Assembly (NCBI GenBank): GCA_964016885.1
Contig: OZ024740.1
Coordinates: 363,692,001-363,756,000, forward strand
Direction: 5' to 3'
DNA length: 64,000 nt
Source of the DNA: Eledone cirrhosa
Lineage: Eukaryota
Shown here piece after piece: positions 9,818 to 59,289 of the stretch (position 1 is its first letter; each line of letters starts with the position of its first letter). The position numbers and the translations under genes were made by a program. Below the pieces are notes generated by a model that was not told the DNA's origin, did no database searches, and saw nothing but the letters and a program-made list of their open reading frames with translations.

Positions 9818-11441
9818 GTTAGTTACACACTTTTATATTTTAGCTTGTACTGTTACTTATATCGTTCTTCCCTCAGGATGGTTTCAGCCAGCTTCCTCCA
9901 TATCATAAACAAAACTCACCCATGCATAGCAATCACAGGTGTCTAACACAACTATTGTCAGCTAGTCACAGTTGCAACAGTGGTCACCTTATATAGTTCA
10001 AGATCCATCTTGATTGTGCCAACTATACACATTGTCATTTATGTTATTATGGGTGGCAGGGTATGTAATAAACTGAGTAGGAGTTGTTTGAGGCAATCAA
10101 TTTGATAGCAACGATGAATTTTGGAGTTTGGCACACTTTTATACTTTATCAGTATACAACAATTCTCTCTGTGGGTCCTAACTCCCAATGGAGTTGTAGG
10201 AAAACAATTGTTATATATGGAGTTTGAACAGAGTTCATTTCTTCCAGAAAAAATAGACTTAGAAAATGGAAGAATTAATCTCTGTACTGAACTGGTACTT
10301 TATTTATTGACCCCCTATATGATGAAAAGCAAAGATAACCTAGGCAAGATTTGAACTACGAGTACAGGGAGTTGGAACAAATGCTGCAAAACATTTTAGC
10401 CAATGTTCTAAAGGCTCTGCCAATTTGCTGCCATACAACAAATACACAAGTTAAAATGAAATTGCAAGGAAAATATATTCTAGATATATAAACTGTATCA
10501 TCATCATTATCATCATTATCATCATCATTTAACATCTGTTCATCCATGCTAACATGGGTTGGAAAGGTCATCACAGACGAAATCAGTACTTAATTGGCGT
10601 TACTGACTTCCAGTACTTTATAGAGTGTACTGTTTGCATTTTAGTCTGGCACCAGCACTAGAGAGGTCGTCATATGCTTAGCCAGACTGGAGAGCTATCT
10701 CTGCTCAATATTGTCTCTGTTCGATTGTCAACCATTCTACAGATTGAACCAGGTGCACTCCATCATAGGATTAAGTTTATCATATCATATAATAGATTGT
10801 CCTTTGTTTGTATCAAGTACATTATATTGCTTTTGACAAAGTTCTCAAAAGTAAGAGACTGTATAAAATATATATAATATTTACAAATTATCCTTCAGCT
10901 ATCAATTTCATATATACAAAGAAATAGAGTCATATATGTAGGCATATACAATATTTATATATAATAAACAAACCTATTCTTGTTGTGAGTATTTTAAGCT
11001 GTGATCAGCTACCTCTATAACCATATGACAATGTCAAATACATGCATTTTGAGATTGTTAATCCATTATCAGTGATGCTTAGTTACCCAGTTAAGGAAGC
11101 TAATGCCTTTTATTTATAGATCTTATAAATAATATATTTTTGATGATAGCTTATTTCCGTACAGTCTGAGTTTGATGATTAATTATTTAGCAGTAGCATA
11201 ATATATTATTAATTAGCAGTAGAACTAACAGGCATATATGCTACCATATACATCTCTATTCTGAAATGAAATATATATACATATGTATTAGAATTGGTTC
11301 TCTGAAATAGCGATGTATACATGAATGTATATATAGTATATTTGGCAATATACCGTATGTTTAATTAAAAACATTTAGAAGATCATACGCTATCAGTTTT
11401 AAAGTAGTGACTATGTCACTTACTTGTTTTCGGCAAAAGAA

Positions 11442-11502
11442 GGGAGAGAAGCTGACAGTCTGTTTCACACTGGTTCGCGTTCATCAGAGCCATGTACTCC
11501 CC
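11442..11502 (-). ncRNA. Type I minimal hammerhead ribozyme motif (family H1, intact)
   Basis: Minus strand reads GGGGAGUACAU-GGCU-CUGAUGA-ACGC-GAACCA-GUGU-GAAA-CAG-A-CUG-UC-AGCU-UCUCUCCC: full core, stems I, II and III, GUC triplet. Confidence 0.8.
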
Positions 11503-11885
11503 TGCTTTCACCAAAAATTTTAGAAGCTGGATTCTTATAGAATTCCAGTAATAATCAGGAGCTGATTATGCAGAGCGATTGCCAGTCCGTGGCTCTGATG
11601 AATGCCAACCAGTGTGAAACAGACTGTCTCCCTTATTTCGCTGAAAAGAAATAAGTGACATAGCCACTACTTTAAAACCGATAGCGTATGGTCTTCTAAA
11701 TGTTTTAATTAAACATACGATATATTGCCAATATATTACACAAACATTCATGTATACATCGCTATTTCAGAGCACCAATCTTAATACCTAATTTTTGCTG
11801 GACCGGCAATTTCTCTGCATAATCAGCTTCTGATTATTACTGGAATTCTATAAGCATCCAACTTCTATAATTTTTGTCGAAAGCA

Positions 11886-11947
11886 GGGGAGTACATGGCT
11901 CTGATGAACCCAAACCAGCGTGAAACAGACTGTCAGCTTCTATCCCT
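11886..11947 (+). ncRNA. Type I hammerhead motif (family H1; C-C mismatch in stem II)
   Basis: GGCU-CUGAUGA-ACCC-AAACCA-GCGU-GAAA-CAGACUG-UC-AGCU. A further copy 306 nt upstream (11591-11632) lacks the 3' arm of stem I. Confidence 0.72.
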
Positions 11948-12857
11948 TCTTTCGCCGGAAAGAAGTAAGTGACATAGTCACTACTTTAAAACTGATAGCG
12001 TATGGTCTTCTAAATGTTTTTAATTAAACATACGGTATATTGCCAAATATATTACACAAATATTCATATATATATATATAAATATGAAAGTGTATCTTCG
12101 TGGTTAGAGAGTTGGATGTGAGTTTCATTCTTGGACTGAGTGATGTGTTGTTTCCTTGAGTAAGACACTTTATTTCACATTGCTCTACTTTATTCAGCTG
12201 TAGAAATGAGTTGCATCATAACTGGTGCCAAACTGTATTGGCCTTTGCCTTTCCTTTGAATGATATTGGTGGTGTGGAGAGAGGAAGCTAGTATGCATGG
12301 GCGACTTGTGGTCTTCCACAAAAACACCTTGCCTAGGGTTGTTCCTTGGAGGGGAAGTTTCTAGGTACAAATCCCATGGTCATTCATGACCGAAGAGGGT
12401 TTTATATATATCTTGTTTACACTCTTAATTTTCGATTATTTTTCTTTACTTGGACTACCTTTATTTTTGTATCTCCTATGTGATCCTGTCTCTAATTTTG
12501 TACCACTGAAGAAAGGCTAAAGCCCAGCACGTCCAACTTTCTTTCCCCTTTTCCATATAAAACATGAAACTAATAAGACGTTTTGTACCTCTGTTTGTTG
12601 TCTCCTTGAACTTTATATATATATATATATTTATATATATATAGAGAGAGAGATATGTGTATCCCGAGTTCAATCAGGGGTAGCCACAGTAAGTAAGGTA
12701 CTCAATACAGAGTAGAGTATAGAATATTTTATATAGAAATGGCTTCTACAGGACTAGAACTGTTTCATTCGAAGGAAATCATCAGGAAAGCTTTCCTATG
12801 AAGCCGTTTCTATATTAAACAATATATATATATGTTATATAAATCTATCTTTCACAG

Positions 12858-30500: not shown

Positions 30501-31232
30501 TCATCATCATCATCATCATCAACGTTTAACGTCCGTGTTCCACGCTTGCATGGGTTTGGACGGGGGTTTTCCCACTTGAGGCAAGAGTGATTGTCTAGCT
30601 CGCATAGAACTGTCTGGCAGGTTTTCTACAGTTGGATGCCCTTCCTAACACCAACCACATTTACAGTGTGGGTCTGGGAGGTTTTTACCATGTTGCCTAC
30701 ACGGCCACATTACAGCGTGGACTGTGTGTTTTTTTGTCGTGACACCTACACGATCTCATTTGTTTCGGCCTGGATGGTGTGGCACCAACATAACTTTACA
30801 TAGAAGGGGGCGGTGTGGATGGGGTGGGGGTGGTGGGACGGGGGTGTATTTTGTTAGAGATGCCTACTGACTGTAGTAGGTTTTACTTTGTATTTAGGTA
30901 AGGCGGGTCTTCTCTATTACTGAGTACCGCCAAAGGTCTCGGTCCAGTGACATTGTCTTGGTGAGGTGTAAGTGTGTGAGGTCGGAGTTTATCAGCTCAT
31001 CCCAGGTTTTTCTGGGTCTGCCTATTCCGTGGCTACCGTCTATCTTTATTGCCCTGCACTTTGTTATACAGCTATCGTCCTTCATGCGCATTACGTGACC
31101 ATACCAACGCAGCCTTCTCTCGAGTAGACAACATCTGATCCCTCTTATTTTTAATTTTTTCCTTAGTTCGTTTATGCTTTGTCGTTCACGTATATTACTA
31201 TTACACATCCAGCGGAGCATGCAAGCTTCGTT
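30501..31232 (-). mobile_element. RTE LINE 3' fragment (family B)
   Basis: ORF 30894-31220 RRLRWYGHV..GRPRKTW; (CAT)n tail; near-identical to the two copies below. Confidence 0.9.
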
Positions 31233-31398
31233 TATATATATATATATATATATACGTATATGCTAGCATGGAAAAATGGACGTTAAACGGTGATGATGAT
31301 GATATATATATATATATATATATTGTGGATCATGCTATGTTAATGCTATCACTAAACAGCTTTTCTTTATAAACTGATTTCTTTTTTTTTCTCTGCAG

Positions 31399-51157: not shown

Positions 51158-51798
51158 TCATCATCATCATCATCATCATCAACGTTTAACGTCCGTGTTC
51201 CACGCTTGCATGGGTTTGGACGGGGGTAGTCCCACTTGAGGCAAGAGTGATTGTCTTGCTCGCATAGGACTGTCTGGCAGGTTTTCTACAGTTGGATGCC
51301 CTTCCTAACACCAACCACATTTACAGTGTGGGTCTGGGAGGTTTTTACCGTGTTGCCTACACGGCCACATTACAGCGTGGACTGTGTGTTTTTTGTTGTG
51401 ACACCTACACGATCTCATTTGTTTCGGCCTGGATGGCGTGGCACCAACATAACTTTACGTAGAACGGGGTGGTGTGGATGGGGTGGGGGTGGTGGTGGTG
51501 GGACGGGGTGTATTTTGTTAGAGATGCCTACTGGCTGTAGTAGGTTTTACTATGTATTTAGGTAAGGCGGGTCTTCTCTGTTACTGAGTACCGCCAAAGG
51601 TCTCGGTCCAGTGACATTGTCTTGGAGAGGTGTAAGTGTGTGAGGTCGGAGTTTATCAGCTCGTCCCAGGTTTTTCTAGGTCTGCCTATTCCGTGGCTAC
51701 CGTCTATCTTTATTGCCCTGCACTTTGTTATACAGCTATCGACTTTCATGCGCATCACGTGTCCATACCAACGTATCCTTCTCTCGAGTAAACAACAT
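51158..51798 (-). mobile_element. RTE LINE 3' fragment (family B)
   Basis: ORF 51558-51758; same 3' UTR and tail as 30501-31232. Confidence 0.9.
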
Positions 51799-52207: not shown

Positions 52208-52602
52208 TTAACATCCATTTTTCAACACTAACAAAGGTTGGATGGGTTGTCATATACCAAATCAATACTTACCCAGAGCCATTGAGCCCTCAGCTGAGCT
52301 GGGGACCACATTTCATTTACATATATTCCCAATTTATACCAAGTGCACCAGGTGTATTTTATCATGACACCAGTACTAGGAAGATGGTCATGTCATTGAC
52401 ACACCAAAAGAGTTCTCTCGCTCTTTTGTTTGGTAGGTTTTCTATAACTGGATGCCCTTTCTATCACCAACCACTTTATAGAGTGTACTGGGTGCATTTA
52501 ATTATGGCTCCAGCACTAGAGAAGTTGCCATATCGTTAAGACAGCTGAAGTTCTCCCAGTCTTATGTTTCTTATTCCTTATTATCTATATATTTATTTGC
52601 AG

Positions 52603-52853
52603 GGGATTACATATATGTTAAACTTGATAAAAGCAAGAAATATAGCGATGCCAAATTCAACATGCCAATAATCAAAAACAGAACAACCTGCCTATCATTT
52701 TTTCATCGATCTCTTGGCTCTTTCACAGGAAGATTAACTGTTTTCAAAGTAATCAATGATAAAAGAATTGCACTTTTACAGATTGAAAAAGAAGGTATTA
52801 AAAATGAATGGACCTTTGCTGAACTAGAAGTACAGTCTTATACAAATCTACAG
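52603..52853 (+). CDS. MAM gene exon 24 (MAM8 core; phase 1-0)
   Basis: ttgcag|GG...CAG|gttggt; GDYIYV..TCLSFFHRSLG..NEWTFAELEV. Confidence 0.88.
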
Positions 52854-53771
52854 GTTGGTTACTATTATATATATATATGCTTAAGGGCGGTAGATAGGTG
52901 GTGTTGGTAGAACATCGGATACTGTTTTGTGGCATAGAGTTATGGCCCTTTCCACTCTGAGTTCAAATCTCGCTGAGGTTAGCTTTGCCTTTCATCTTTG
53001 CTTTCATCTTTGCCTTTCATCTTTAAAAAAAAGTACCAGTAATGCATTAGGGATGATTTCATCAAATTCCCCCTCCCCCAAAATTGTTGGCCTTGTGCCT
53101 AAATCGGAAACCATTATATATACCTGCTTGGGAAGGCCTAGTGGATAGGGTGTTGGACTCATAGTCAGAATGTATTTGGTGCATTTTACTATGTCGCTAA
53201 TGCTAGAGAGGTTATTATATACTCAGATAGACTGAAGAGACTTCTCTAACCTATATTATCTCCATTCCACAGAGTGTACTGGGTGCATTATATTATGACA
53301 CCAACACAAGAGAAGTTATATAACCAGCCAATGGTTAGGGTGTTGGGCTAATAAATGTGACTTTGATTCTTGACCAGGTATTGCATTATGTTCTTGAGCA
53401 AGGTGCTTCATTTCATGTCACTTTTCATGATAGGACTGAGACCCCCTTTTTTTTTTACAACACCCAAGATACTTTCTATGAGATGTAACCTCATAGGAGG
53501 TCAGCTAAACCTACATAAGTGTGAACTGCAACATGATAGGATTGGGGACCCTATCATTAAAACACCCATGAAATTTCCTTGTAAGAAGTTAGCTAAACAT
53601 ACATATGTCTGAGCTATAACACCAACTACATGATAAGACTAAGGCCCTTATTTAAATACCTGAGAAAATTTCTATGAAATGCAAACTTATGGGAGATCAG
53701 TTAAACCTGTATAGTGAGGAGCTATACAAAATATAATGAAAAAATAATAATAAAGAAATATTCTTTTGCAG

Positions 53772-54397: not shown

Positions 54398-55284
54398 TAT
54401 GTTTACCATATATACTCATGTAAAGAAACATACCATATATACTTGTGTAAAGAAATATACCATATATACACATGTAAAGAAATATACCATATAAACATGT
54501 AAAAGTTGGATGGTTTTATAGGTATAACTTATGTGGTTGACTATTACATAGTTACTAAGAGCTGAAATTCACACTACAATCCAAAATACTGTACCAATAA
54601 GTAGAAGATTGAATAGACTCTAGATGAAGCAAAAGTGAAACAATAAATTACAATAATAATACCAATATTTTTACATATCAAAACACACATCTTCCTACCA
54701 GAATACATAAATATGGTTACATAGCTCTTACAAATATTTCCCTGGATGTACACTAGAACATAATAATATATGAAAATTAATTTCCTCAACATAACACAGC
54801 AGCAACAGAAGCATTTCTGAATTGGGGGCCAAATTCAGTTGTAGTGATTATTTTAACTGTTATAAAATATCAACCAAGATATAAAAAAACTTGTAGTACA
54901 TATACAAATAGATGTGTGTTTTGGGTAGTTTGGGGAGAAATATATAATTTTTGGCGGGGGTGACTCCCACCTAAGTTCCACTGCCTCTGTAACATTTGAT
55001 GTTCAGAACAATATCTAGATTCAACAATATTGACCTGATTTCCATTGGGCCAGGCTTTATACAAGTATATATGGCTAAAACTATTCTTCTTGTAAATTAG
55101 GATTTTTCATCAGAGTATCTTATAAGATATGTTTAAAAGGAGTCACTGTGTAATATCTCAACCTGTATGTATTTTATACCACTAAGTAAATACACACACA
55201 CATATATATATATGTTATATATATATATATATAAGTATGTATACGTACATACATATATGTATACAGACGTACAGTAGTATGTAT

Positions 55285-55975
55285 ATCATCATCATCATCA
55301 TCATCATCAGGTTTAGCGTCCGTGTTCCACGCTTGCATGGGTTTGGACGGGGGTTTTCCCACTTGAGGCAAGAGTGGTTGTCTTGCTCGCATAGGACTGT
55401 CTGGCGGGTTTTCTACAGTTGGATGCCCTTCCTAACACCAACCACATTTACAGTGTGGGGCTGGGAGGTTTTTACCGTGTTGCCTACACGGCCACATTAC
55501 AGCGTGGACTGTCTGGCGGGTTTTCTACAGCTGGATGCCCTTCCTAACACCAACCACATTTACAGTGTGGGGCTGGGAGGTTTTTACTGTGTTGCCTACA
55601 CGGCCACATTTACAGCGTGGACTGTGTGTTTTTTTGTTGTGACACCTACACGATCTCATTTGTTTCGGCCTGGATGTTGTGGGACCAACATAACTTTACA
55701 TTAAAAGGGGCGGTGTGGATGGGGTGGGGGTGGTGGGATGGGGGGGTGTTTTGATAGAGATGCCTACTGACTGTAGTAGGTTTTTACTTTGTATTTAGGT
55801 AAGGCGGGTCTTCTCTATTACTGAGTACCGCCAAAGGTCTCGGTCCAGTGACATTGTCTTGGAGAGGTGTAAGCGTGTGAGGTCGGAATTTATCAGCTCG
55901 TCCCATGTTTTTCTGGGTCTGCCTACTCCGTGGCTACCGTCTATCTTTATTGCCCTGCACTTTGTTATACAGCTG
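55285..55975 (-). mobile_element. RTE LINE 3' fragment (family B) with an internal ~110-bp UTR duplication, inserted in the H3 hammerhead element
   Basis: GRPRKTWDEL..DRDLWR; UTR block repeated at about 55395-55510 and 55506-55625. Confidence 0.88.
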
Positions 55976-56128
55976 TCGTATATATACATACATGCACACA
56001 TATATATATGTACGTATGGATTCACCGAACATTTATTATAATGCTCGGTGTGTTTGTAAACAAACATCCCGAATTAAGCCGTACAGTGTCTAGCAACCAT
56101 CGTTGCTCATTTATTCAACACTGACAAA

Positions 56129-56183
56129 GGAACGCTGTACTAGTTTCAAGCTTATTAGCTATCGTCAGCAACGTATACCTTCC
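56129..56183 (-). ncRNA. Type I minimal hammerhead ribozyme motif (family H3, intact)
   Basis: Minus strand reads GGAAGGUAU-ACGUUG-CUGACGA-U-AGCU-AAUA-AGCU-U-GAAA-CUAG-UA-CAGCGU-UCC, with palindromic ACUAGU stem III. Mutated plus-strand copies lie at 56426-56468 and 56856-56898. Confidence 0.8.
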
Positions 56184-57167
56184 TGCCAGATGATTGAACG
56201 TCTGAACGTATATACTTTCCTTATGCATATTAACGGCTGAGCAGCCTAATTTGCATATCCAGTGAGTTAATTGGCCGGGGTACCGAAAATGAAACGGCTG
56301 TTACTTAAATATAAGTATGTATACATATATACATATATGTATACAGACGTACAGTAGTATGTATATATATATATATACATACATGCACACATTTATATAC
56401 GTTCAATCATCTGGCATGAAGGTATACGTTGCTGACAATAGCTAATAAGCTTGAAACTAGTACAGCGTTCCTTTGTCAGTGTTGAATAAATGAGCAACAA
56501 GGGTTGCTAGACACTGTATGGCTTAATTCGGGATGTTTGTTTACAAACATACCGAGCATTATAATAAATGTTCGGTGAATCCATACGTACATATATATAT
56601 GTGTGCATGTATGTATATATATATACATACTACTGTACATCTGTATACATATATGTATGTACGTATACATACTTATATTTAAGCAACAGCCGTACTAAGA
56701 GTGAGAAATGAAATTTCGTTTCATTTTTTCCATTTATCGTTTTCGGTGCACCCGGCCGATTAACCCACTCGATATGCAAATTCGGCTGCTCAGCCGTTAA
56801 TATGCATAAGGAAAATATATACTTTCAGACGTTCAATCATCTGGCAGGAAGGTATACGTTGCTGACGATAGCTAATAAGCTTGAACCTAGTACAGCATTC
56901 CTTTGTCAGTGTTGAACAAATGAGCAACGATGGTTGCTAGACACTGTACGGCTTAATTCGGGATGTTTGTTTGTTTACAAACATAGCGAGCATTATAATA
57001 AATGTTCGGTGAATCCATACGTACATATATATGTATGTGTGCATGTATGTATATATATATACATACTACTGTACGTCTGTATACATATATGTATATACGT
57101 ATACATACTTATATTTAAGTAACAGCCGTACTAAGAGTGAGAAATGAAATTTTGTTTCATTTTTTCC

Positions 57168-57233
<66 letters not shown>

Positions 57234-57319
57234 GTATATATATATTATGTATGTATATATATATATATAAATTAAGTATGTGTATATATATATTATGTAT
57301 GTATATATATATATATTGT

Positions 57320-58174: not shown

Positions 58175-58315
58175 CTGCCTGTACCTTTGAAGAAGAACAT
58201 TTATGTCATTGGAAAAATGCTGATAGTAATATTCATGATTGGACAGTTCACAGTGGAGGAACTGCTTCTTCAAACACAGGGCCAATTGGGGACCACACAA
58301 CAACCGATAAAGCAG
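58175..58315 (+). CDS. MAM gene exon 26 (MAM9 N-terminus; phase 1-1); the gene continues beyond the window
   Basis: tctcag|CT...GCAG|gtaag; ACTFEEEHLCHWKN..HDW..GGTASSNTGPIGDHT. Confidence 0.92.
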
Positions 58316-59289
58316 GTAAGTTTGCTCTACAACTTTTCTTGACAATTTGACTGTAACCATCCTTCATGCTACAATACTAAGCTTTTTATACCACATGAAA
58401 TAATATTAGCAAAATATTCTTGAAAAGTACAAAACAATACTATGATAGCATCACATTAAAAGTCTTTACTCTAATATTGCATAATTAGAAAAAAAGCTAT
58501 CCACTAATAAAAATACTGTATACATATACATTTATCTATATGCATATATACACATATGTATATAAATGTATGGATATATATGTCTACATATATTTGATAC
58601 AATTTCAAGTGATCAGCAGTCTTTAGACTCACCAGATCAATGAAACAATTGTTAATACTGCAAATAAAACCCTTTTTGTACAACCAACCATGTTATTCTT
58701 CACTCTTTCACTATATATATACTATATATATAATTTTATAGATATATATATTTATATACATAGATATAATATAGATATATATATATCATCATCACTGGTA
58801 TACATCTACTTTTCCACGGTAGCATGGGTTAGACGAGTTGTCCTTTTGTGGGCAATGCTAGGTCAGATGACCATGTCAGGCTCATACAGGACTGATCATT
58901 TCATTTCATTTCATTTCATTTCATTTTACGTCCGCTTTTCCCTGCTTGTATTTATATCATATATACATATATATATATAATATTTCATAGAGCCAGATGT
59001 CACAGTTCTGTGTGATCACTTTAGTGAGGTGTAATTGAACAAAGTCAGCTCTTATTACCTCACCCCAGGTCTTTCTAGGCCTGCCCATTCTATGGGTAGC
59101 ATCAACTTTGAGCGCTCTGCACCTTTTTATACAGCTGTCATCCTTCATATGCATCACATGTCCATACCAATGCAATCTTCTCGTTTGCACTCAGCATCTG
59201 ATCCCTCTTATGTCTAATTTCTTGTGCAATGCATTTATGCTTTGCTTTTCATGTATGTTGGTATTGAACATCCACCAAAGTATATATAC

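Follow-up and report, generated by a model that had tools for sequence, protein, structure and literature searches.

The hammerhead-bearing locus at 55228-57170 of the window, a 64,000-nt stretch of the Eledone cirrhosa genome, is very probably a two-armed insertion of an abundant non-coding non-LTR retrozyme, likely copied in trans by a Neptune-type protein that carries reverse transcriptase (RT) and GIY-YIG domains. One arm ends at each of two fixed sites, and copying by a Penelope-like enzyme is therefore likely. Judged by sequence, the element is a non-LTR retrozyme with a Penelope-like layout and tail, and the window copy is an ordinary one: old, partly decayed and probably intronic. The family bears on which enzyme moves animal retrozymes, so far a matter of proposal, and on how head-to-head Penelope-like insertions are built. 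It counts some 29,000 copies of the ribozyme and includes a very young subfamily, intact-looking Neptune-type ORFs occur in the same genome, and its ends keep to a near-strict rule of one tail per insertion. In vitro work thus finds its substrate and candidate enzymes at hand, together with a sharp prediction.

Layout of the locus

The unit is about 434 nt long and is arranged head-to-head and in tandem. The features are as follows:

55200-55228: left (TA)n flank, inferred target microsatellite (TRF row 55202-55263)
55229-55286, minus strand: outer part of the left arm, untailed end at site A (u317-377, 96.7%)
55287-55978, minus strand: nested 5'-truncated RTE LINE, foreign to the element (ORF end, 3' UTR, ATG-repeat tail)
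55979-56402, minus strand: inner left arm, made up of one unit and a 5'-truncated one
56126-56183 (also given as 56132-56174), minus strand: type I hammerhead with intact core CUGACGA/GAAA/UA, predicted cut after GUA at 56138
56249-56256, minus strand: octamer, as reverse complement in the inverted copy
56399-56402: head-to-head inversion junction, 4-nt overlap common to both arms
56399-56737, plus strand: first unit of the right arm, 5'-truncated (u89-433, 94.2%)
56426-56468, plus strand: hammerhead with G8A (CUGACAA, 56437), predicted inactive, predicted cut after 56462
56738-57173, plus strand: full unit of the right arm, tailed end at site B
56774-56781, plus strand: octamer, conserved in three lineages
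56856-56898, plus strand: hammerhead with A15.1C (GAAC, 56886) plus a mismatch in stem I, predicted inactive, predicted cut after 56892
57115-57173, plus strand: tail between end sites A and B, predicted hairpin
57174-57316: right (TA)n flank

The original prediction had treated the whole range as one hammerhead locus. Its layout stands, but 55287-55978 is a separate RTE LINE that had been missed; it interrupts the left arm within the arm's internal TA run. This LINE matches the window copies at 30524-31077 and 51184-51741 at 94-97%, its translation matches the ORF at 30894-31262, and its (ATG)n tail lies on the minus strand. With the LINE removed, the locus reads (TA)n, minus-strand arm to site A, junction, plus-strand arm of 1.8 units to site B, (TA)n. 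The internal unit junction of the left arm lacks part of the tail. No ORF with RT and GIY-YIG was found at the window locus.

The most likely setting of the locus is an intron of a MAM-domain gene on the plus strand: the upstream frame has a Pfam MAM match, and the downstream exon, which has none, appears MAM-like by eye. Exons of this multi-MAM-domain host gene lie on either side, at 52482-52907 and 58175-58318.

An assembly artefact could also produce a tandem and inverted structure. Short-read assemblies are troubled by such structures (PMC8557442), and no public contig spans the whole locus; those from four sequencing runs (organisms A-D) cover parts of the unit. Nevertheless, the three window copies differ from one another by 3-5% around the ribozyme, and dozens of loci, as well as other families, repeat the architecture and keep to its strict end rule, so that an artefact is scarcely credible.

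Insertion ends and the mode of copying

The outer ends of the insertions fall at two fixed sites, A and B, which are 57-60 nt apart depending on TA overlap and lie 220-280 nt downstream of the ribozyme cut site. DNA ends are thus set at A and B and not at the ribozyme cut. The tail between them is predicted to fold as a hairpin (z = -3.1), and past site B the sequence continues straight into the next unit. A partial tandem joined head-to-head to an inverted 5'-truncated copy, with an optional 3' tail delimited by two end sites, is the arrangement described for Penelope-like elements (PMC8557442, PMC3846280).

The end census covered 102 loci, namely 51 position-ordered loci and 29 and 22 best-hit loci, in which 52 end pairs were called. 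Three pairs were removed (L177, whose right end is foreign to the element, and the duplicates L104 and one L145 pair) and three calls were changed on visual inspection, L178 and L015 becoming mixed and L026 becoming A|A. After this curation 42 of 49 two-armed insertions are A|B, two have ends of the same type (L016, L026) and five are ambiguous; the excess of A|B has p about 4e-7 with the ambiguous cases counted as same-type. The position-ordered set gives 18/19, and the window locus is A|B too. The rule also holds in the sister family (of 11 further loci from the relaxed motif list, ten, all of this family, were callable and all are A|B) and in the autonomous Neptune-type elements of the same genome (five of five two-armed copies).

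TA repeats adjoin 118 of 149 automatically called ends, some miscalls included, against 2.7% of window positions, and a clean TA run is missing at the remaining 31/149. The TA-free ends of L002 and L168 show that insertion does not add the run every time, and this speaks for a target already in place; the (TA)n was presumably present before insertion. Empty alleles were not seen, and contiguous flanks were not found in 16 single-armed cases.

A shared insertion mechanism had been proposed for this locus and locus H1 (11282-12075 of the window), and the ends support it: H1 has head-to-head arms with intact cores, B|A ends and a tail of about 36 nt, hence one tailed and one untailed end, as in Neptune-type elements. 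The two are, as had been stated, dissimilar outside the ribozyme core except for TA-rich sequence. A third hammerhead-like motif occurs near H1 (12758-12785, minus strand) and adjoins a TA run. Elsewhere, at L179:2440-2850, an arm of the 434-nt family stands in tandem with an H1-family unit, TA runs bounding both.

The end rule bears on other ways of mobilisation. An RTE LINE might have moved the unit, or host repair might have inserted ribozyme-made circles, the inversions being later DNA rearrangements. RTE copies are abundant and often adjoin units, many copies of the family are cut by deletions, and palindromes are unstable. Yet RTE copies here end in ATG repeats rather than at two sites in TA, the ends of the family are 220-280 nt away from where the ribozyme cuts, and later rearrangement would not yield 42/49 A|B or the same rule in Neptune elements; this origin is very improbable.

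In another reading the first arm is made from RNA and the second is a fold-back copy of the first cDNA, halted at the other fixed site. Exact palindromes do occur at some junctions (in L147 both arms begin at u228), self-priming is proposed in PMC3846280, and the arms are among each other's closest 5% of copies in 18/32 loci, with multiple insertions at some of these loci; the window arms are not. However, a fold-back arm cannot exceed its template, yet either arm may be the longer one (A in L142 and L185, B in L147), which disfavours pure fold-back. Most junctions, moreover, join different unit positions. Although later array growth could blur the evidence from the arms, fold-back is considered rather unlikely.

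Copying from RNA by a Penelope-like enzyme, the preferred reading, may proceed as follows. A multimeric or circularised transcript would be bound near the tail hairpin, and the endonuclease would nick a TA-rich target on both strands. One nick would prime reverse transcription within the RNA at site A, the other at site B; the resulting cDNAs would stop at variable points and be joined head-to-head by short overlaps. The hammerhead would process or circularise the RNA, DNA ends being set otherwise. In the window, an RTE LINE later inserted into the left arm, and the two plus-strand ribozymes decayed. For comparison, PMC11167929 reports nicking and extension of both strands of AT-rich DNA by a purified Penelope-like protein, with reverse transcription starting at two sites inside the RNA, one at each end of the tail, and with no need for ribozyme cleavage. 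Both L142, with 15 units identical across the two arms, and L148, an ABAB dimer, would fit a circular template, but a 32-unit sister-family array is a mosaic. The five-unit array at L148:1840-3780 alternates two variants that differ at ~14 positions. In the sister-family insertion at G000:C1:5738100-5752750 (L238, L239), 31 units stand on one arm and 1 on the other; these mosaic units show a local periodicity of 3-4 units.

More tentatively, and with the odds somewhat against it, each two-armed insertion may be the work of one Penelope-like protein dimer that clamps a single tail hairpin and delivers A and B to separate active sites, a single RNA thus serving the primers of both target strands; retrozymes with an octamer-driven promoter of the snRNA type would parasitise this step, and the rare cross-family chimeras, most of which have same-type ends, would be two-RNA events. 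If true, a rule that can be counted in genomes would link the mobility of animal retrozymes to Penelope-like enzymes.

Cross-family chimeras were considered as proof of co-mobilisation and set aside: 12 head-to-head matches stand against 8 in the control orientation. In nine of these 20 the joint is free of TA and the ends face outward, but they are not counted as evidence because nested insertion plus deletion could also make them. As a separate observation, a Neptune-type 3' end faces an arm of the 434-nt family head-to-head in L188/L170 (G000:C1:13811500-13812300), L174, L190, L191, L193, L196, L197, L198, L200 and L207. The joints are without TA and often at the usual fold-back point of the Neptune arm; by eye, the ends are of the same type in 6/7 cases with both ends readable, unlike those of same-family insertions. 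Either two-RNA insertion or nested insertion plus deletion may have produced them. At L144 (3800-4650 and 5385-6865), a joint between the 434-nt family and another GIY-YIG-like 3' end occurs twice, inverted and ~1 kb apart.

The hammerhead ribozyme and internal sequences

Three copies of the ribozyme had been described in the window, and the account of them proved accurate. The minus-strand hammerhead has an exact core, the two plus-strand copies are 430 nt apart, and their lesions are G8A and GAAA to GAAC, the second copy having a stem I mismatch as well. Selection against sense-strand ribozymes in the host intron was considered as the cause of these lesions and rejected as unsupported: G8A is a CpG transition, and the plus-strand cores of H1 are intact.

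The motif has a CUGANGA/GAAA/UH core and three stems in type I order, which assigns it to type I hammerheads. An Rfam scan (E<=1) gave no hammerhead match; its sub-threshold matches were mostly to miRNA models on TA repeats. The exact core was found in 177/206 sampled copies, a figure biased upward because copies were chosen by near-match to part of the core. Stem I has 6 bp, stem II has four positions with a U.U base and a six-base loop, and stem III consists of one pair under a palindromic tetraloop, the palindrome being of the ACUAGU type. Stems I and II covary, with both sides changing in 7 of 11 pairs across 13 hand-picked variants of related lineages. In these variants 93% of cells are paired, against 15-47% in slid controls, and the shuffle test is not a probability because the variants are related.

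In silico, closure of stem III in the monomer costs about 5 kcal/mol, and the palindrome gives a 6-bp duplex. These energetics fit the dimer model of hammerhead cleavage outlined in PMC4209133, as well as the axolotl variants in PMC7229834, and the hammerhead is predicted to cut as a dimer via its palindromic stem III.

Two internal sequences had been given roles in the original prediction. Pairing of the internal microsatellite with (TA)n targets finds no support: insertion ends lie at two fixed sites downstream of the microsatellite, and the sister family, which has no pure internal TA run, lands in (TA)n under the same two-site rule. The octamer was correctly placed at ~56774 and near 56249, but the second merely repeats the first within the inverted copy and is not an independent site. 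It is present in 161/180 copies and in the sister family, and is contained in TATGCAAATT, the longest invariant run (10 nt) over three lineages that share 44% of columns.

A role as part of an internal promoter is speculative, though the case is strengthened by this conservation and by a newt precedent. The promoter of newt satellite 2 reportedly includes an octamer. That satellite is likewise a tandem unit bearing a hammerhead, and its internal snRNA-type promoter (cited in PMC2220036) may be compared with the candidate octamer here; unlike in the newt, no proximal sequence element or start site was identified with the octamer in the Eledone unit.

The family, its candidate partners and known systems

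Across the 3.0-Gb genome 28,868 sites match an 18-mer of the core exactly and 0 match a reversed control, so the motif is not due to chance. The first 100 of these matches form 55 clusters, from which ~16,000 loci genome-wide are extrapolated; neighbour pairs within 1 kb among the same 100 are tandem in 33 cases, divergent in 12 and convergent in none. The best matches of the window copy elsewhere are 94-95% identical. A young subfamily with a unit of about 475 nt has top matches of 99% identity and an array of 10+5 near-identical units. A relaxed pattern yields 11,783 further ACUAGU-type motifs (control 165), the first 100 of which belong mostly to the sister family, with a unit of about 466 nt and 57-60% identity. 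Typically of retrozymes, the short non-coding unit occurs in tandem with a hammerhead in each unit, and the copies are dispersed and numerous, without LTR structure.

Candidate enzymes are plentiful. The genome holds 10,596 GIY-YIG candidates, of which 150 were scored, and autonomous Neptune-type elements encode an RT, a CX4CX2C linker and, at the C terminus, a GIY-YIG domain. The local Neptune-type families carry palindromic-stem hammerheads, tails and TA flanks of their own. No autonomous element sharing sequence with the unit was found in 58 GIY-YIG loci, and no autonomous partner among the first 100 of the 11,783 other hammerheads. Unit copies beside Neptune ORFs (L055, L071, L074) were considered as a partner and rejected as separate insertions; in L055 and L074 they lie within flanking TA runs. 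Retrozymes have been proposed as non-autonomous partners (PMC7229834, 10.64898/2026.07.22.740005). Against trans copying, PMC3846280 notes no cross-mobilisation between families in a rotifer.

The unit could instead be a decayed pLTR of an autonomous Penelope-like family, its copies being 5'-truncated remnants, with no self-propagating non-coding element at all. Penelope-like insertions are for the most part 5'-truncated, and the ends they leave are tailed and inverted (PMC8557442); short truncated Neptune ends are abundant here, one Neptune hammerhead motif alone having 11,862 matches. This reading is nevertheless improbable, given that the sequence past site B runs into the next unit, that as many as 15 near-identical units stand in one array, that the young subfamily is 99% identical, and that no ORF is tied to the unit in the examined loci. 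A remote pLTR origin is compatible with the preferred reading of a retrozyme copied in trans as well.

The locus had originally been left unplaced among Penelope-like elements and retrozymes, where its layout and dimer-type stem III are published. Indeed the layout, tail, TA bias and dimer-type hammerhead have all been reported for such elements. With metazoan non-LTR retrozymes, as PMC7229834 and 10.64898/2026.07.22.740005 describe them, the family shares a non-coding tandem unit with one type I hammerhead, a GC content under 45%, tens of thousands of copies, dimers to 30-mers and co-occurrence with Penelope-like elements; two axolotl variants (PMC7229834) also share the U.U base of stem II, the 1-bp stem III and the palindromic tetraloop. 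The Eledone unit measures 420-500 nt and so reaches or exceeds the upper end of the 150-450 nt described. The passages considered mention no head-to-head arms, tail or TA targeting, 'inverted' occurring 0 times in PMC7229834 and once in the preprint. Xenopus retrozymes differ in having a pLTR homologue; none was found in the Eledone loci sampled.

Neptune-clade elements (PMC8557442, PMC3846280) share the partial tandem with an inverted 5'-truncated copy, the optional tail at one end, TA-repeat targets and a hammerhead near the 3' end, and their local autonomous members keep the one-tail rule. They differ in that the Eledone unit has no RT or GIY-YIG ORF and no similarity to the local families sampled, and in the tail, which is 57-60 nt here versus 30-40 nt as published (about 40-62 nt in local autonomous families). 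In Poseidon PAc of Anolis, as described in PMC11167929, two internal start sites also bound the tail, both target strands are used and the hammerhead cut does not define the DNA end; PAc is autonomous, however, and of another clade, and strict A/B pairing per insertion does not figure in the passages considered. The non-autonomous Chlamys element MRC1 (PMC8557442) differs as well: elements of the MRC1 type resemble the 3' end of their partner, and most Chlamys elements lack a canonical hammerhead. No report in print was found, in the main texts of the open literature, of the tail signature on a retrozyme or of a one-tail rule counted across families, and supplements of PMC8557442 and PMC7229834 may list the family.

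Two further observations concern neighbouring elements. Another short non-coding repeat with an internal palindrome lies in TA runs beside or inside insertions (L170:2330-2520, L115, L169, L200). In addition, the hammerhead cores of three Neptune-type families, at loci of the L061, L055 and L072 types, combine U3 with A8, which amounts to a swapped core pair; cores with this swap can be active.
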